63,717 bases of DNA, filler included, from Reclinomonas americana ATCC 50394 (GCA_048213135.1; 6 parts of 2 records of this genome joined end to end with filler, not necessarily neighbours in it); one strand, 5' to 3'. Counted from the first letter of the whole stretch, positions 18,999 through 62,077 are shown. The notes: generated by a model from the sequence alone, not told the origin. Made by a program: numbers and translations.

Positions 18999-21685
18999 AT
19001 GAGAACTCGCCAGAGGCTAAAGAAACAGCATTTGCGACTAGTACAGAGAACAGCAAGCTTATTCTGCAAGCTTGTGCATTCTTTCCTCACGTTCTCCCTC
19101 CCCCTGCCTCCCTTCCCCGTTTTCCGCAGTCCTCCGACGAAGTCGTCAACATCCTCCGCTGGTGCCGTCGCACCTCCACCCGCCTGCGCACGCTCGACCA
19201 GGACGCGCAATCGCTCCGTGGCGCTCCCTTCCTGCTCTTCCCGAGCAAGTACGTCAAGTCGCAGTTCACGGCCAGCAGCACCGAGCAGATGCTGTCGGTG
19301 GTGGACATGTGCAACGGATCGTTTGATCACCTGGAGCTGTCGAGCCTCGGCCAGGTCGAGGAGTGTCTGCGGGAGGTGTATGCGCGACTGAGGACGTTTG
19401 AGGCGAGCCTGCGATCGCTCTCCATTCGACATCCAGTGGATAGAGTTGCGTTGCGAAGTAAGGGGAGGAAGAAGGCTGGAAGATGAGTGCTTTCTTCTTT
19501 GTCTTACATTCTTGTGTGAGATGTGAGGAGTGCTTATGATTTCTCATTCTGTCTCATCCCCTTCTCCTGACGCTCCTTTCTTCCATCATAGGCCGCTCTG
19601 GAGGCTGCGGCAGCCAATGCCCGCGGGCAGGTGGCGGATTGTGTGCAGGAGCTGGCCGAGTTGGCCGTGGTTGTGCCGTCAAGTTGCGATGAGCTGTCCG
19701 TGTCGATTCTCGTGTCAATCTCTCACGTGTTGGACTGGCAAACAGGACAAGCAAGTCGTCGCGGCTCGTGGGCGCCATCCACAAAGGAAGTGCTCACTGT
19801 GCTTCCACCGTTTTCGCGTGCCAAGTTGCGTTCCTCAAAACAGATGCAAGACGCTCGTCGTGTACCTTCTGGTTCATGCCGCCATGATCTTCCCATTTCT
19901 GTCTTCTGAGTGCCATTCTCCTCTCAGTTGCAGTCACCGTCCCCTGTCACGCTTTGACCCCTGTCAATATATTTGCCTCCACTTTCCTAGTCTCTGCGCT
20001 TTCTGCCTCAATCTCGCACCACTTTCTTCGCCACCTCCGCTCAGTCTCAGCACTCTCTCTCTCGCTCTCCCTGTCTCTCTCTCTCTCTCTCTCTNNNNNN
20101 NNNNNNNNNNNNNNNNNNNNNNNNNNNNNNNNNNNNNNTTAATTAATTAANNNNNNNNNNNNNNNNNNNNNNNNNNNNNNNNNNNNNNNNNNNNGCTGAG
20201 CACCATGCATTCTCGTCTTGTTTGTCTCACGAGATCACATGCCACTGTTCTCTCATCTTGTTCTGCAAGACTGCGGTGTGATGTGCTGCATTCTCATTCC
20301 TTTCTTTCGCGTCGAGAGCACGCGTCACTATTCTCGCGCTTCTTGCTTGTTCTGCAACAGTACGATGTGAACTGCTTAGGTTTGCATCTGCTCGTTCCTT
20401 TGTCTCTCCTAGAGCACGCGTCACTGTTTTCTCTCTTCTCGCTTGTTCTGCAAGACTGTGGTGCGAATAGCTGAGCACCATGCATTCCCCTCTTGTTTGT
20501 CTCATGAGACCGCATGCCGCTGTTCTCTTGTCTTGCTTGTTCTGCAATACTGCGGTGTGATGTGCTGCATTCTCATCTTTCTTGCACATCGAGAGCACGC
20601 GTCACTATTCTCTCTTCTTGCTTGCTCTGCAAGATTGCGGCGTCCTCAGCAGAGCACCATGCATTCCCGTCGTGTCTGTCTCCCCGAGACCGCATGCCAC
20701 TGTTCTCTCATCTTGCTTGTTCTGCAAGACTGCGGTGTGATGTGCTGCATTCTCATTCTTTCTTTCGCGTCGAGAGCACGCGTCACTATTCTGGCTCTTC
20801 TTGCTTGTTCTGCAACAGTAAGATGTGAACTGCTTAGGTTTGCATCTGCTCGTTCCTTTGTCTTTCCTAGAGCACGCGTCACTGTTCTCTCTTCTCGCTT
20901 GCTCTGCTCAGTCTTGCCTTCTATGTCTCTCACTCTCCCTCTCTCTCTTTCCCTCCTCCGCAGGAACGCGATCGCGCCCGCGAACGCGAGAAGCTGCTGA
21001 CGGCCAGACCTGCCGATCCATCTGTGGTGGTGGGGCCGCCGTCTGCGATCGCTGTGACCATGCCATCGTCGGTGCAGTCGTCGCTGTATCCGGCCATGGC
21101 TGTGGATGTGCCTGGTCCGCCATCGCCACTGGCCGAGTCTCCGTCGGCCGCTAGCTACTCACCACCATCGGCTGCGGCGCCGCTGGGTTCTCCTCTCGAT
21201 GCGGTGTTTGCGCCGGGTGTGTTGGAGACTGCAGTGACGGCATCTGGAGGGTACGCACTTGCGTGTGTTTGTGTGGCGCGAGAGAAATGTGATGAGATGG
21301 TGTGACTCACTGTTGTTGAACATGCAGATCGTCAAAGGGATCCAAGCGGAGGGTGAAGAAGCTGGATGAGAAGTAATTTGCGTGTGGGGGTGAAGTGCGG
21401 TTTGTGTGGTCAGTGAAATATTTTGGCGTGCGGAAGCCGACCAGGGTGTGTACTCGGGAGCTGCACTGGGCAGAGGGACAGTTTCTCGGAAGAGGTAGCA
21501 AGGCTCAGCAAATCGCGGTCTGTACCGATGGCACGATCTGCGATGGCAGAACAGGTTTTCATCCAAACAACACAGCTGCGAGCAGCAGATTATCGTGTGA
21601 CAACTGCACAGGTCAAGAATAAGGCGATGGTGAGGGTGAAGGAGACAGAGGAGGAGGAGGAGGAGGTGAAGAAGAAGAAGAAATA
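18999..21685 (+). CDS. Hypothetical multi-exon protein spanning a scaffold spacer
   Basis: Putative exon 1 MRTRQRLKKQHLRL, intron 19041-19129, then exons SSDEVVNILRWCRR..ECLRE, AALEAAAANARGQVADC.., ERDRAREREKLL.. and a Pro/Ser-rich exon. Both ends, and continuity across the 20095-20193 gap, are uncertain. Confidence 0.5.
20139..20150. other. Artificial assembly spacer TTAATTAATTAA (also 49480-49491, 53984-53995, 58265-58276, 60444-60455)
   Basis: Identical 12-mer with stops in all six frames, centred in ~100-nt N blocks. The GT41, CHID1 and GILT genes continue across it. Confidence 0.97.
20194..20900. repeat. Degenerate intronic minisatellite
   Basis: gagcaccatgcattc recurs at ~20197, 20473 and 20652, with repeated subunits gagcacgcgtcact and cttgttctgcaa. 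Confidence 0.85.
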
Positions 21686-22254
21686 ACAAAAGAGAGAGAG
21701 GGACAGAGCACGTAAGCAACCCGCAGTTGCATTATGCGGAGGTTCTCAGAGCATTGAATGCAATTGTCGATTCTTTTCTTTGCCATCTCGACTGACTGCT
21801 TCCGCGGCAGCCTAACATGCATCTGCCATCTGGACCAAGTTGACGGCCAGATACACCACCTGAGTGTCTCTACTGCTGCTCCCTCCCCTGACCATTCTCC
21901 TCTCGGCTACAATGGAACAACTGTTGCCTGTCCAACCTCCACCTTCTGCCTCTGCTGCACGCACTGGACGATCCCGTTACACCTCAGGCTCTTTCTTCCA
22001 CCCCTATCCCCGGTTCGCTATCAGAGCATTGAAATTGAAATGCTCCTTCCCCCCTAACCCTCTCCCCCACCCCTTCCCCCTTTTAAACAGCAAAGTGTGG
22101 TGATGTCGTTTCAATGTATTTTGCATGAAACGCCCCGCCATCTGGCGAGACGTGAAAAAAGGAAAGAGCGGCGAGGGAAAAAACAAACAAGCGCGTGGTG
22201 AAGATTTTCGTCAACCATAATGTAATGGGGTGCGTGTGCGTGCACTCCTTCTCT

Positions 22255-24743
22255 TCAGAGGACGACGCAGCCTCCCTTCTTCTTCTTCTTCTTGTCGTCC
22301 TTGGATTCGTCGGGGAACAAGACCACCTGTGTGTGTGGAACAAGTCCATTGAATACACACANNNNNNNNNNNNNNNNNNNNNNNNNNNNNNNNNNNNNNN
22401 NNNNNNNNNNNNNNNNNNNNNNNNNNNNNNNNNNNNNNNNNNNNNNNNNNNNNNNNNNNNNNNNNNNNNNNNNNNNNNNNNNNNNNNNNNNNNNNNNNNN
22501 NNNNNNNNNNNNNNNNNNNNNNNNNNNNNNNNNNNNNNNNNNNNNNNNNNNNNNNNNNNNNNNNNNNNNNNNNNNNNNNNNNNNNNNNNNNNNNNNNNNN
22601 NNNNNNNNNNNNNNNNNNNNNNNNNNNNNNNNNNNNNNNNNNNNNNNNNNNNNNNNNNNNNNNNNNNNNNNNNNNNNNNNNNNNNNNNNNNNNNNNNNNN
22701 NNNNNNNNNNNNNNNNNNNNNNNNNNNNNNNNNNNNNNNNNNNNNNNNNNNNNNNNNNNNNNNNNNNNNNNNNNNNNNNNNNNNNNNNNNNNNNNNNNNN
22801 NNNNNNNNNNNNNNNNNNNNNNNNNNNNNNNNNNNNNAAGACGCAAGAGGAAAAAACACAAACGAACAGGTCCTGTTCTTCCTCCTCGTCTCGTCACATC
22901 TTTTTCACGTTCTTCCTCCTCCTGCTGCTGCTGCTGCTCCTCTCCTTCCTCTCGTCTCTCGCCTCTCGTCTTCCTCCTCACAGGACGACGCAGCAGCCCC
23001 CACTCGCCGGCGCTTCTTCTCGCCTGCTCGGATTGAGGACAATCTACAAGAGAAAGCACAAAAAGACACACACACACATGAGCATCATGAATAACAGAGA
23101 CAGGGGCGGAGACGACAAACTGCAGCTACGCTGGCCACCCTCTCACTGACTCGGTGTGTTGTACCCTGCCTGCACTCTTCTCACACTCTGTCGCCCTGCT
23201 CCTCCTCCATCATGCACTCACCCGAATGGCCGTGTCGAACACCTCCTTCAGTCCCTTTTGCGTCTTTGCAGAGCACTCGCAGTAGCCGACGGCGTTGATC
23301 TCCCGTTGCATGTTCACGCCCTGTGACACACAACAGTCAGTCAAATGCATCATCTCATCAGCAGCAGGAGACAGCGGACAACAACAACAACAAACCTCCT
23401 CCCTGGTGATGGGTGCCAACCTCTTCTGCTTGAGCTCCTTGATGATCTCCGGGTCCTCACGCATATCGAGCTTGGTGCCGACCAGCAGAATCGGAACCTC
23501 CGGTGCATGGTGCTTCAGCTCCTGATACCACTGTGACACACACACAAACAGAAAAAAAAAGTCAACAAAAACTCGCCACGTGGAAAGCGGCACTCGGCTA
23601 CACAGTCGCCTCTCCACCACTCCTCACCTTGTCCTTGACGTTCTGGAATGAGGAGGGGCTCACGAGCGAGAAGCAGATGATGAAGATGTTTGTGTTGGGG
23701 TACGACAGAGGGCGCAGACGATCGTAGTCCTCCTGACCTGCAATGAGAGAGACGCACGAAACACACAAGAGCGCACACGTGAGCATAGAGACCACGTGCG
23801 CGTGTGGCGTGTGTGCAGGAGATGGCGGCTGAGCGCGCGCGCGATGTTCCGTTTCCACTCATTATCTCTCTTTCTCTCGTCGCACAACGCGTGCAAGACA
23901 AACACACCAGCTACCTCTCTCTCTGTACGTGCGTCTATGGCGTGGAGCGTGGGGGGCAGGGGGCCAGATGGCGCGCGTGTGCGTGTGATATCTTCCGCTC
24001 CAGGCACAGAGCGCACGTGCAACACACAAACACACACCAGCTGCCTCTTTCCACGCGTGCACACGGTGGGGCGTGCAGCGTGGGGAGGGGCGAGATGGCG
24101 CGCGCGTGCGTGTGCGTGATATGTTCCGCTCTCACAGCAACAACCCCCCTCCTCTCTCTCTCTCTCTCTCTGGCTCTCTGACCGTCACTCACCAGCGGTA
24201 TCCCACAAGCCGAGGCCAATGGTCTTGTTGGCAACCATCACGTTGGCGTTGTAGTTGCTGTCCGCACACGTGAAGTCAGACACACACTCTCACTCACGCC
24301 ACTCTTCTTGAAGACGCAACTCAAACACCGTGGGCACGTAGTCCTCCGGGAATTGGTTGTTGGCATACGCAATGAGCATGCACGTCTGTGTGTGCGTGCG
24401 TGCGTGTGTAAGCAAGCAACACAAGTGCGACACTTTGACAAAACAAACGCCTCTCACACAGTGAGCGAGTGTGTGTGTGTGTTTGTTATCTCACCTTACC
24501 GACGGCACCGTCTCCGACCACCACACCTGTGGAGAACACACACACATAAGTGAGCGACACGTGTGAACAAGAGAGAGTGGAGGAGTGAGGCGAGAGAGCA
24601 GTGTGACATTTTCAACCAAACACCCTCTTCTCCTTGCGCCCCCAGACTTTTCACATGCGCGCACTGCCTCTCTCTCACACACTCTCTCCCGGTGCGTGTA
24701 TGTGTGTGTAATGGAGAGAAACGCAACACTTGATGTTATCCAT
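22255..24743 (-). CDS. RAC: Rac-type Rho-family GTPase with two candidate terminal exons
   Basis: [65 protein letters not shown]../[17 protein letters not shown]../[23 protein letters not shown] exons at 22978-23043 and 22255-22326. Confidence 0.96.
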
Positions 24744-25357
24744 TCTCCCTCACTGCCGACAAATCACGTGTGGTGAGTCACACGAATTGTGCGCCGAAAG
24801 CTATTTGTGGCGAGTTGGTGGGCCCGTTTGCATTTTTGGTTGATTCGTGATTTCTGGCTGGCCCGCCACTTCGCCCCGGCCTGCCAATTGGTCTGACTGC
24901 GGGCCAGAAGGGTGTTGGGCGTATTTCGGTCGCACTGCGGGGGAGCTTTACGACGATCCACTCCACTTCCGGATCCGGATCCGAGCTGCAGACCTTCAGA
25001 TCGATATCCCACTTGTGTTCCAGGAAACGTATCCGTTCGGCATCGCGCTCTCCGCCTGTCCAGATCCCGAAAAAGTCGACTGAACTCATCAGAAACAGCA
25101 TTGATACCGAGCTCGCAGCACTGCGCGTCTGCCAATCGATGCCAGCGTGCCCTTGTCCATTCGATATTTCGTCGTATCTGCCTCCGAGAAGTCTCATTCT
25201 GCAGCTGTGTCGTGTTGTTGGTTCATAGCACAGCGGGCCCATTTGCATTTCGCTTTCTCCACACTCCACTCGCACACACAATATTTCGTAACCCACTCGT
25301 CACGCTCTCTCTCTCTCACTCACTGCCGTTCTCCCTCGCGATCTGGTGATTTCGTGC

Positions 25358-56203: not shown

Positions 56204-59200
56204 GGGAGGGAGAAGAGAGAGCTTTGTGTTGTGTGTTGTGTGCATTTGTGTTTGTGTGTTGAGAGTTTGCAGTATGCATGTGTTTTGCATGTTTGGAGTG
56301 TGTGAGTGTTTGCGAGTGTGTGTGAGAGAGAGTGTGTGTGTGTGAGAGAGAGAGAATGAGATAGTTTGTTTGGTGCGCTTAGGCGTCACGGATAATGCAG
56401 CAAAAGGTGCACTTATCCGTCGCCTGCATGCACTTTTTTCTCTCACTCACTCCTGCTCATTCTCTCACACACACTCACATATGCACACACACATGCATAC
56501 TTATTAAAACCGGACACAAAACGAATGTGAACCTGCTCTCACCCTCCTTCTTCTGCCTCCCTTCACTCCCACACTTTCCCTCTCTTCCCCTCACTATCCC
56601 ACTCTTTCCGCTCACTTTTCCACTCTTTCCACTCACTTTTCCACTCTTTCCACTCACTTTTCCACACTTTTCCACTCTTTCCCCTCATTTTCCCTCACTT
56701 TCCCTCACTCTCACATCTTCACACTCTCTCGCCTCACTTTCCCACTCTTTCCGCTCACTTTCCCTCTCTTGCCCCTCACTATCCCACTCTTTCCCCTCAC
56801 TTTCCCTCACTTTCCCTCACTCTCCCATCTTCACTCTCTTTCCCCTCACTCTCCCACTCTTTCCGCTCTCTTTCTCACACTTTCCGCTTACTTTCCCACT
56901 GTTTCCGCTCACTGTTCGTTTCCCTCACCTTCCCTCTCTTTCCCCTCACTTTCCCTCACCCTCCCTCTCCCTCTCCCTCTCCTCTCCTCCCCAGCAGGTC
57001 GACGTTCAACAAGCCGAGCTGGCCCTCCAACGCGCCCGCGAACAGGCGAGCGCCGAGGAATTCGCTCGCATGCGTGCTGAAGCCGAGGCGCAGCGACGCG
57101 CCGAGGTGCAGGCCGCTCACGAGCGCGCAGAAGCCGAAGCCGCGCGGTTGCGTGCCGAGGCCGAGGCAGAGCTTCTGAAGCAGCAAAAGGAGCGGGAGCG
57201 GAAAGCCAAGGCTGCGGCTGCTGCTGCTGCGCCGGCGTCTGCGCCTGTGGAGACGAGTGAGGCGGAGGATCGGTTGCACTCGGTGTCGCCGTTCATGGGC
57301 ACTGCGTTGGAGGTGCAGCAGGTGCACGACTCGTTGGTGATGAAGCCGCAGCCGCGCACCAGCAAGAACTTCAAGGGCTTCACTCTCGGCTTCACCTCGC
57401 CGCAGTCGCCAGCCGGTGATGAGATGGCGCTGCGCTATGCGTGCAAGTTGAATGCGGTGGCGCCGGCATGGTATACTGTGCGGCGGTGAGTGCACGAATG
57501 CAGGGGAAGCGAGGGTTGTGCAATCTCACTCACTCTTACCTGATCAGCGGCTCTGATGGCTCGTTCGTGGTTCACGGAGGCGACGGCAATGCAGTCGACG
57601 ACAAGCTTGACTACGTGAGCGACATGCGCTCGAGCTGCAAGAAGTTGAGTCGCGCACGTGTGTGTCTTCGGTTCCCTGACAGATTCCTTACTTCTGGGGG
57701 CGGCGGTCCAGATCGCCCAAGGTGATGCCACGCTGCAAGTTTGAGGCCGGTTCGTGGTCGGAGGACGACATTAACGCGTTCTTCCGGGAGGGATCGCAAT
57801 CGTTTGACGTTGCTGGCGCCGTCGCTGCTCGTCTCCGATCCATTGCCGCGTTGCGTCAGAGGGGGAGGAGAGGGGAGGAAGGGGAAGGGAGTGGGAGGGA
57901 GAGAAGAGAAACGGGAGAAAAGGTGGCAGAGCAGGAGAAGAATGAGGGAGAGAGAAGTGTCGCGTGCTTCGTCTTGCCACTCTCTTCCTATCCTGTTAAC
58001 TTTCTTTCTCCTTCCAGCTACCCTTTCCCCCTCATTCCTCCACTTTCCCCTCTCTTACCCCTCCTTCCTCCTCTCCCCCTCTTTCCCCTTCATCTTTCTT
58101 CCCTCTTCCCCCTTTCTCTTAATCTCTCTTCCCTCTTCCCCATCTCTTCCCCTCTCCTCTCTTTCTCACTTAATTCTTCCCCTATCTTACCCTGCTTCCC
58201 CTCCTTCCCCTCCTTCCCCTNNNNNNNNNNNNNNNNNNNNNNNNNNNNNNNNNNNNNNNNNNNNTTAATTAATTAANNNNNNNNNNNNNNNNNNNNNNNN
58301 NNNNNNNNNNNNNNNNNNNNCTTCCCCCTCCTTCCCCTCCTTCCCCTCCTTACCCTCCTCCCACTCTTCCCCCTCTCCTCCCACTCTCCCTCCCCCCACT
58401 CTTTCCCCTCCTTCCCCTCTTCCCCCTCCCTTCCCCACTCTTTCCCCACTCTTTCCCGTTCTTCCCCGCTTCTCACTTTCCCCCTCCTGTCCCAGTGACA
58501 CCGGTGTGGACGGCTTCGTGGTCGACTGGAGTGGCTTCACCACCGAGGACATCACCAAGATCGCTCCGGCGTTTTTCGAGGGCCTCAAGACCGGCCGTAT
58601 TGGTGGCCGTGAGATTCGTCCCGTCAATGGCACGGCCGCGGAGCTCGAGTCGTTGACCGTGGTGTGGTCCGTGAAGGTACTGGGAGAGACAAGGGAGAGA
58701 GAGAGAGAGAGTCCACTTGTCCCGTTTTGCTGATTATGTTGCAGGTTCCCAATGCCGTCGACGCGGTTCCGCAGCTCGCCGACGTGCTGCACTCGACCGA
58801 CAAGCACGTGGACATGTTCTCGCTGAACACGTACTCGTACGCCGGATCGCTGCAGTTTTGTTGATGGTATCTCTCTCTCTTTCTCTTTCTATCTGCTCAC
58901 TTGTCTTTTTCGCAGAGGCCCGCTGGCTCCGTACCAGTGGCTGAGCAACGTGTTGCGTGTGTTGACTCGCGGTGCCGGCGTGACGGTGAATGTGTCGACC
59001 TCGGATGCCGCGGCGGCCGCGGACAGCCAAGTCAGTGATACTCGCTTCGCCAAGAAGCTGCTACTGGGTCTGCCGTTCTTTGGGTGAGTGGGGGGTGGTG
59101 GCAAGGAGAGGAGAGGGCGATTCTGTTGTTCATCTCTTGCTTGTGTGCAGATACGAGTACGTGGACGGCGCGCGCATGCGCCAGGTGAATTCCAAGTACT

Positions 59201-60263: not shown

Positions 60264-62077
60264 ATGCGCTCTTCGTTTGTGCTTCTCGCGTGCGCCTTGG
60301 CGCTGAGCTGCGTGGCGGTGTCGGTGTTCGCCGCCGGCAACATCGTCAACTTTGAGTTGGTGAGTGCGTGTCAAGAGAGATGTCATGACTTGGACAACAN
60401 NNNNNNNNNNNNNNNNNNNNNNNNNNNNNNNNNNNNNNNNNNNTTAATTAATTAANNNNNNNNNNNNNNNNNNNNNNNNNNNNNNNNNNNNNNNNNNNNA
60501 AGGCTGTGAGAGCGGAGTATGAGTACTGCGTGGAGTGGGTGTGAGTGACAATGGGGAAATGCGCTGGAAAGGCATATGCAGTGCTTCGTCTTCTGAGCCT
60601 CGAATCATGGTCTCATGCTTGCTTTGTCTTGTGCAGCTTGAACATCACCCTGGTGCCGTACGGTGAGGATTCATTCCTTCTTGTGCATGAGAAATGTGTC
60701 CCTCGTTCTCGCTTTGTTGACTGTGTACCTCGCACCCCTCAACGTCTTTCTCCTCTTGCACTCATCTCCCCTTGTTCAACCAATCACAGGCAATGCCCAG
60801 GAGTACCGTGACTCGAGGTGAGCCAGCACCTGTCCCGCCTGTGCCTCCTTCCTTTCTCTCCCTCACGCATTCCTTTTCTCTCGCGCAGCGGAAGCTGGTC
60901 GTTCAACTGCCAGCACGGCCCGTCGGAGTGCCAGGGCAACATCATGGAGGTACCTCTTCTCCCGGTCGTACGTCATCGCTGCCCAACACACGCATTCATT
61001 CTCGTCTATCCGCCAGACCTGCGCCCTCAAGCTGAACCCCTTCAACACGGCCCTCAGCTTTATCCTGTGCGCCGAGAAGGGTGACAGCCCCGCCACCGTT
61101 GCGTCCACACACAAGCCTATTTCGTCGGCAGAGTCGTCTCCGTGCCCATTTTCTTTGTGAGCAGGTCGGCTCTGTGTGCGCGCAAAAGTACGGCCTGAAC
61201 TGGAGCAACATCTCCTCGTGCATGACCTCGGCTCAGGTGCGTGTCGGTGGTGTCCCTTCCCCCGTTCCCTCTACATCCATCTCACCTCCTCTGCAGGGCA
61301 ACCAGTGGGAGCACGAGATGGCACAGAAGACCAGCGCCCTGCGCCCGGCTCACCAGTACGTGGTTCGTTGACCCGTCCTTGTGCATCGGAGTCATGTCTC
61401 TCTCGCTCTCTCTCTCACACACACACTCACTCACTCTCGCTGCGCGTGTACGTTTCTGTGTAAGTACGTGTATCGCTGCCCGTGCCTTCGATACCTCTTC
61501 GTCACTTTCTCTCTGTCTGTCTCTATGTGTCTATCTGTTTGTGTGTATGTGCGCGTACGTGCGTATTGGTGATACCTGCTTCCCGTGCCTCCTATCTCAT
61601 TCGTATCTATCTCTCTGTCTGTGTGTGTGTCTCTCTCTCTCACTCTTGCTGTGTGCATTAGTACGTGCCTCCAGTTCCTCTTCGTCACTTTCTCTCTGTC
61701 TGTCTATGTGTCTATCTGTTTGTGTGTATGTGTGTACGTGCGCGTGCGTACGTATTGGTGAAACATGCGAGCTCTTTCGTATCTTTCTCTGTGTTTATCT
61801 GTCTCTGTGTGCGTGTGCGTGTGTGTTCTTTAGGCCTGCTTCCCCTGCCTCCCAACTCTCTCCGTCTCTATCTCTCTCTGTCTGTCTGTCTGTCGGCTTC
61901 CCGTCTCTCCTTCTCCGTCTCTTCCTCTCCCTTTGTGTGCTCACCTGCACTGCCCCACAGCCGTGGGTCGTCGTCAATGGTGTCCACACCGAGAGCATGA
62001 ACGATGCCGTGCTCGACGACATGCTCGGCTACGTCTGCAAGCTGTTCACTGCTCCCAAGCCGGCCGGCTGCCAGTAA
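60264..62077 (+). CDS. IFI30: Gamma-interferon-inducible lysosomal thiol reductase (GILT) homologue; CXXC exon falls in gap
   Basis: Signal peptide MRSSFVLLACALALSCVAVSVFA; LVPYGNA; signature CQHGPSECQGNIMETC; HQYVPWVVVNG; YVC..PKPAGCQ*. Confidence 0.92.

Follow-up and report, generated by a model that had tools for sequence, protein, structure and literature searches.

A Rac-type GTPase gene of Reclinomonas americana with two candidate last exons for different membrane-targeting tails

Can a single Rac-type GTPase gene of Reclinomonas americana ATCC 50394 provide its product with either of two membrane-targeting tails, by choosing between two alternative last coding exons? This question is raised by a locus in a 63,717-nucleotide (nt) stretch of the genome assembly of this organism (GCA_048213135.1), hereafter the window, which is made of scaffold pieces concatenated via artificial linkers. 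On the minus strand, a gene core that reads as a Rac-like Rho GTPase devoid of a tail is followed by two candidate last exons, here named 8a and 8b, the former encoding a non-basic tail with a double cysteine and the latter a polybasic tail. We attribute a probability of roughly 0.55 to the reading that these are the alternative last coding exons of one Rac-type gene. The more ambitious proposal, that one Rac gene, in a non-vertebrate and probably unicellular organism, gives rise to a geranylgeranyl-plus-polylysine and a geranylgeranyl-plus-palmitoyl isoform, by independent origin and for the first time in the Rac subfamily, stands in our estimate at about even odds. As read from the DNA, the two-tail anatomy seems structurally well founded; as a case of alternative splicing it is partly supported and unproven.

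The Rac core and its two candidate tail exons

The core of the gene spans 1.5 kilobases (kb; 24743-23222) and is composed of seven minus-strand exons, separated by introns of 201, 109, 63, 455, 97 and 75 nt (introns 1 to 6) that have GT..AG borders throughout; the joined exons form 522 nt in frame:

24728..24743, minus strand: exon 1, 16 nt, ATG start, donor gttgcg; from sequence reading and frame check
24495..24526, minus strand: exon 2, P-loop, acceptor ccacag, donor gtgaga; from sequence reading and frame check
24321..24385, minus strand: exon 3, switch I region, donor gttgcg; from tblastn with the protein P0004 and splice sites
24193..24257, minus strand: exon 4, ..LWDTAG; from tblastn and splice sites
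23628..23737, minus strand: exon 5, switch II; from Pfam Ras (PF00071, E 6.7e-9) and tblastn, with the exon 5/6 junction present in a spliced contig
23396..23530, minus strand: exon 6, TKLD motif and Rho insert region; from tblastn, aligned to Rac3 residues 97-140
23222..23320, minus strand: exon 7, CSAK motif, ending in ..FDTAIR, phase-0 donor gtgagt at 23221; aligned to Rac3 residues 141-175

The amino terminus is M-D-N-I-K-C, exon 1 reading on into exon 2 as in the protein P0003. The motifs of a G domain are present in the exon translations (P-loop, switch II DTAGQE, TKxD and CSAK), and the Pfam family PF00071 (Ras) was matched over its curated cut-off not only by exon 5, with the value listed above, but also by exons 6-7 read through (E 1.4e-10). 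When the window was searched by tblastn with the full-length Rac-like protein P0004, exons 3-7 of one locus were recovered in three alignments (E 3e-36 and 6e-14). In the comparison with solved structures, for which exons 6-7 were used (78 of the 174 core residues), Rac3, Rac1 and Rac2 were the best matches (E ~7e-23), with Cdc42 behind (1.6e-17). The alignment of exon 6 to Rac3 is gapless and spans the Rho insert, and the ..AIR terminus of exon 7 is the precise point where Rac tails start. Because of the Pfam and PDB matches, the Rho insert in exon 6 and the end of exon 7 at ..AIR, the core is, to judge from its sequence, a Rac-like Rho GTPase that lacks only the tail.

Transcript evidence came from a public run, X1, the sole one matching part of the DNA (share of sampled words 0.05), which was examined over positions 22100-24800 (2701 nt). 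One 168-nt contig of this run joins 23628 to 23530 with 0 mismatches, skipping the 97-nt intron 5. The Rac gene is transcribed, and it is spliced as modelled at the exon 5/6 junction.

Two candidate last exons were identified downstream of the phase-0 donor that follows exon 7 (gtgagt, with its GT at 23221-23220):

22978..23043, minus strand: exon 8a, candidate last exon, non-basic tail ending in GGCCVVL-stop; acceptor ttgtag; intron 7a of 178 nt
22255..22326, minus strand: exon 8b, candidate last exon, polybasic tail ending in GGCVVL-stop; acceptor cacacag; intron 7b of 895 nt at the nominal size of the gap that it contains

A preliminary description of this DNA had proposed two in-frame last exons after the phase-0 donor, and we were able to reproduce their coordinates, frames and peptides: joined by coordinates, the core and 8a encode 195 amino acids (aa) and the core and 8b 197 aa, both without internal stop. 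The two exons are on the same strand and in the same phase 0, in an order that fits the exon 7 donor. Exon 8a encodes 21 aa followed by a stop, with no net basic charge and with an additional cysteine immediately preceding the prenyl one, as expected from the earlier claim of a non-polybasic tail with a terminal double cysteine; its acceptor is preceded by a long pyrimidine tract. Exon 8b encodes 23 aa followed by a stop, and six consecutive lysine residues stand right before GGCVVL; the earlier count of six lysines is correct for this run and one short for the tail, which has seven in total. The acceptor of 8b is of the CACAG type, as are four of the six constitutive acceptors of the gene. 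Both exons are closed by a complete CaaL box (CVVL-stop), that is, a CaaX (Cys-aliphatic-aliphatic-X) box with leucine at X, and what differs between them is the second membrane signal. Since 8a and 8b both start, after ..AIR, with a hydrophobic-V-L-x-P pattern that matches the AVLxP tail start of relatives, both are homologous to one particular segment of Rac, and the position of the intron is shared.

We hypothesize that exon 7, whose phase-0 end lies just past the final G-domain helix, is joined by splicing to 8a or, when 8a is skipped, to 8b. Exon 8a would have a 3' end of its own, or it would act as a stop-containing cassette like KRAS exon 4A. Both isoforms are predicted to be geranylgeranylated at CVVL, because leucine at the X position favours geranylgeranyltransferase I (GGTase-I), the enzyme to which this residue directs the protein (PMC9868626). 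In the 8b isoform, the lysine run next to the prenyl cysteine would bind acidic lipids of the plasma membrane, which is the usual electrostatic anchor of the Rac and KRAS4B type. A cysteine directly before the prenyl cysteine is a typical position for S-acylation in prenylated GTPases, and in the 8a isoform S-acylation of this residue would create a reversible palmitate anchor, with trafficking via the Golgi and endomembranes. The joining of both tails to exon 7 in messenger RNA, the lipid modifications and the regulation of the choice are all steps that we infer.

Two further features of the gene were observed. The donor GTTGCG occurs at two of the seven donor sites (24727-24722 and 24320-24315, minus strand), the rest being of the GTGAG type; protein homology spans both junctions, and GTTGCG may be a second common donor flavour of this genome. 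In intron 4 (23738-24192, minus strand, 455 nt), three similar blocks of ~120 nt (..gaacatatcacgcacacgc..ccatct..cacgc..) were noticed by eye, and they look like an internal tandem repeat.

Tail types among relatives and possible traces of duplication

How usual are the two tails among related proteins? An exhaustive search of 1.84 billion representative proteins returned 4437 matches, and the tails were calibrated on the best 150, of which 72 end in C-x-x-x. Among these 72 CaaX-ended relatives, at least four lysine or arginine residues in the ten residues before the cysteine, as in 8b, were observed in 55 (for example P0070, ..KKKGGRGGCMIL, and likewise P0087), and leucine is the terminal residue in 49. 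An extra cysteine at most six residues upstream, together with at most two lysine or arginine residues, is found in three of the 72 (P0009, P0083 and P0088), one of which ends in ..SSGCCILL. By this calibration, the tail of 8b is the one that is standard for Rac, and that of 8a belongs to a type that is rare but recurs. The prevalence of the 8b type among relatives, together with the constitutive type of the 8b acceptor, suggests that 8b is the ancestral default tail and that exon 8a was added in the last intron.

The closest single-domain relative, P0007, has 74% identity over exons 6 and 7; the contig that encodes it is 813 nt long, and the protein has a single CaaL tail, which is weakly basic. 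A protein search with exon 6, directed at longer proteins, gave two matches among six candidates, with 65% and 60% identity, which are likewise encoded on short contigs; proteins of the organism itself are apparently absent from the collections searched. A scan of metagenomes yielded 39 pattern matches, from which two distant loci were confirmed (45% and 40% identity).

Could the tail exons be chance reading frames? Over its 63.7 kb, the window contains in all six frames just five motifs of the form Cys-aliphatic-aliphatic followed by L, F or M and a stop, and two of the five are those of 8a and 8b, located on one strand and directly downstream of a tail-less Rac core; a chance origin of the tail exons is ruled out by these numbers. 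Another of these motifs, CFLL-stop at 23058-23044, was dismissed as a product of chance: it results from translating the 8a acceptor, with its pyrimidine tract and TAG, and its phase does not fit that of exon 7, because intron 7a has 178 nt.

The preliminary description had also considered the ends of the two exons to be consistent with exon duplication, a view that the DNA supports weakly. A sensitive blastn comparison of the 8a and 8b regions gave one meaningful match, 13 identical nt over the CaaX codons (E 0.004, in a small search); the remaining matches are microsatellite noise, and the introns and other flanks are unrelated. Past the two stops there is, in addition, a similar T-rich element:

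22850..22863, minus strand: T-rich element GTTTGTGTTTTTTC, starting ~115 nt past the 8a stop; from pattern search
22175..22188, minus strand: matching T-rich element, starting ~67 nt past the 8b stop; from pattern search

The corresponding 14-nt pattern, GTTTGT(G)TTTTTTCC, was matched three times in the window, where 0.19 matches are expected, and none of 100 shuffles reached three. This element may have been left over from a duplication extending into the 3' flank, or it may be a common 3'-end signal. Exon duplication is a plausible origin of 8a and 8b, one that is barely visible in the DNA; if it was a tandem duplication that gave rise to the two exons, it would have taken place long ago. 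The fact that acceptor, frame, CaaX box and stop have all been kept in both exons, despite their diverged flanks, argues for selection on both tails.

Assembly context and alternative explanations

The reading of 8a and 8b as alternative last exons of one gene has to be weighed against the state of the assembly around them, of which two features are relevant:

22362..22837: scaffold gap of 476 undetermined bases (N) between 8a and 8b
20095..20194: artificial linker (44 N + TTAATTAATTAA + 44 N), at which the scaffold piece with the Rac locus stops

The gap had been reported before as 22362-22838; it is there, and its N run ends at 22837. It is one of 27 N runs in the window, of which 17 are sized gaps, all of at most 659 N, and at its 8b-side edge stands a (TG) run, of the sort that typically makes assemblies break. 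Many other gaps adjoin long (GA)n, (CA)n or (TACG)n microsatellites (e.g., 10458, 18779, 31483, 37579 and 54941/55588), and simple repeats, including the (TG) run at the Rac gap, appear to be the chief cause of breaks in this assembly. Identical 100-nt linkers are found at five positions of the window (20095-20194, 49436-49535, 53940-54039, 58221-58320 and 60400-60499), and adjacency across them is meaningless.

Several observations speak against two alternative last exons in one gene. The 476 nt between 8a and 8b are unsequenced, and beside them 140 nt of flank past the 8a stop and just 35 nt of intron upstream of 8b are visible. The contig that carries 8b (20195-22361, 2167 nt) is scaffold-terminal, because the linker at 20095-20194 follows, and it is tied in solely by the link across the 476-N gap. 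There is no read or contig of run X1 over exon 7, 8a or 8b, depth being present in four of 30 bins only, and neither of the exon 7-to-tail junctions (23222/23043 and 23222/22326) was seen in this sparse run, whose single contig is that of exons 5/6. In both metagenome loci, a single tail is continuous with the core, and no intron is present at the tail position. Furthermore, P0005, P0006 and P0008-P0010 contain two to four tandem Rac/Rho-like domains (four to eight matched stretches), and these are either real multi-GTPase proteins or predictions fused over the tandem gene arrays of other eukaryotes.

Of the alternatives, the one that survives best assigns 8b, as the last exon, to a second Rac paralogue, a possibility already raised in the preliminary description. 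The upstream exons of this paralogue would lie in a gap much larger than assumed, or at another locus if the 2.2-kb contig was mis-scaffolded, and there would be two ordinary single-tail genes. The tandem Rac arrays of other organisms raise the prior for such a neighbouring paralogue, and each tail type occurs elsewhere in separate Rac-like genes. The gap hides all but those 35 nt upstream of 8b, the 8b contig lies at a scaffold end beside an artificial linker and is anchored on one side only, and the microsatellites at the gap edge and in the 3' flank of 8a can mislead scaffolders. However, a core of 1.5 kb would need to fit into a gap with an estimated size of 476 N, in a window where the sized gaps have 659 N at most. 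A recent duplicate collapsed in the assembly predicts similar tails and flanks, whereas the observed ones are unrelated, and an old and diverged duplicate core should have assembled into contigs of its own; in the window no second Rac core is visible by tblastn, the remaining eight alignments with P0004 all having E values of at least 1. Nor is an accidental placement likely to have brought a tail exon, correct in order, strand and phase, to a position after a Rac core that lacks a tail. We regard a hidden paralogue or a mis-join as unlikely, and as less likely than alternative last exons.

A second explanation accepts both exons as parts of this locus and holds that one of them is used, the other being a silent leftover of an old duplication or replacement, for instance 8b decaying downstream of 8a. 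It would be compatible with the lack of both tail junctions in run X1 and with the burden on the use of 8b, which would demand the skipping of an exon with a strong pyrimidine tract, together with the removal of an intron of ~895 nt, the longest of the gene. Nevertheless, the flanks of the two exons have diverged beyond recognition, and a neutral exon of 66-72 nt is not expected to keep an AG acceptor, frame, CaaX box and stop over such a time; 8b has, moreover, kept an uninterrupted lysine run and an acceptor of the constitutive type of the gene. An unused exon seems improbable to us. The last explanation, an assembly artefact in which two haplotypes of one terminal exon were placed in tandem around the gap, draws on the many N runs of the window and on the frequent occurrence of false duplications beside the gaps of draft assemblies, but it is hardly credible and effectively refuted by the unrelated flanks found with blastn, since alleles would be near-identical, whereas 8a and 8b have just 13 nt and the 14-nt T-rich element in common and encode peptides of 21 and 23 aa that differ over most of their length.

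Other genes were also identified in the window. At 192-2057 (plus strand), a single open frame of 621 aa matches the WD40 beta-propeller (PF00400, E 8.8e-13) and many further propeller families, and its comparison with the ESM Atlas gave generic WD40 clusters only. At 42452-44078 (plus strand), consecutive frames encode an HSA domain (PF07529, E 5e-6) and, after it, the start of an SNF2-related helicase domain (PF00176, E 9e-7); this is probably a chromatin remodeller gene of the SWR1/INO80/Brahma type that is broken by introns and a gap. An open frame at 52704-53987 (minus strand) matches glycosyltransferase family 41, which is O-GlcNAc transferase-like (PF13844, E 2.6e-11).

Known tail switches and the meaning of the Rac locus

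If 8a and 8b are alternative last exons of one Rac gene, with which known systems could they be compared? In the KRAS4A/KRAS4B pair, one GTPase core is likewise followed by two homologous tandem tail exons, the upstream one with its own stop; the polylysine and prenyl group of 4B correspond to 8b, and the palmitoylatable cysteine and prenyl group of 4A to 8a. KRAS exons 4A and 4B are mutually exclusive, with 4A located within the intron before 4B, and exon 4A is described as having arisen by the capture of an NRAS exon (PMC9882654). The two systems differ in family and lipid, vertebrate RAS proteins belonging to the Ras family and carrying farnesyl, whereas the gene described here is of the Rho/Rac type, with CaaL boxes that predict geranylgeranyl in both isoforms. 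They differ also in that the splicing of KRAS is proven, whereas the Rac tails are known from genomic sequence.

The ubiquitous and brain isoforms of CDC42 are closer in family, as this is a Rho-family GTPase with alternative tails, polybasic or double-cysteine, as in 8b and 8a. Its alternative last exons 6 and 7 end the protein either in CVLL, with a prenyl group and a polybasic stretch, or in CCIF, with a double cysteine that can be palmitoylated (PMC9868626), and this two-tail case has been described for vertebrates (10.1101/2023.02.27.528078). In contrast to 8a, in which the extra cysteine precedes an intact CaaL box, the second cysteine of the palmitoylatable Cdc42 is inside the CaaX box (CCaX); both CDC42 isoforms keep basic residues, whereas the 8a tail is non-basic; and the alternative CDC42 exons also alter residue 163, beginning earlier in the protein than 8a and 8b. 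KRAS and CDC42 are given as the only two of 167 human RAS-superfamily genes with splice variants that have distinct membrane-targeting tails (PMC9882654).

Each tail also has counterparts in single-tail genes. The canonical Rac tails (polybasic plus CaaL) are like 8b, with no notable difference, and a gene with 8b alone would be an ordinary Rac. Dual lipidation with a cysteine near the CaaX cysteine is known in proteins of the RhoB type and of the yeast Ras2 type. The non-basic Rac-like GTPases with a cysteine before the CaaX box share the Cys-Cys-aliphatic-aliphatic-X arrangement with 8a, and they differ in being the products of separate genes with one tail each.

In the openly accessible literature searched, which was covered in part, we found no report of alternative last exons for membrane targeting in a Rac or in any Rho GTPase outside vertebrates, and the switches of KRAS and CDC42 are both treated as vertebrate features in PMC9882654 and PMC9868626. 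Should the polylysine exon belong to a hidden paralogue, the locus would come down to a pair of ordinary Rac genes in a draft assembly with many gaps. If, on the other hand, 8a and 8b are indeed alternative last exons of one gene, this Rac would be a case of the same kind as KRAS4A/4B and CDC42, probably of independent origin. Its occurrence outside vertebrates would mean that the tail switch evolves repeatedly and is not a vertebrate peculiarity, and that the splitting of one GTPase between a stable electrostatic anchor and the reversible trafficking of an acyl cycle is a recurrent solution. The locus would also offer a simple system in which to ask what advantage a cell draws from anchoring one GTPase in two ways, polybasic and acylated.

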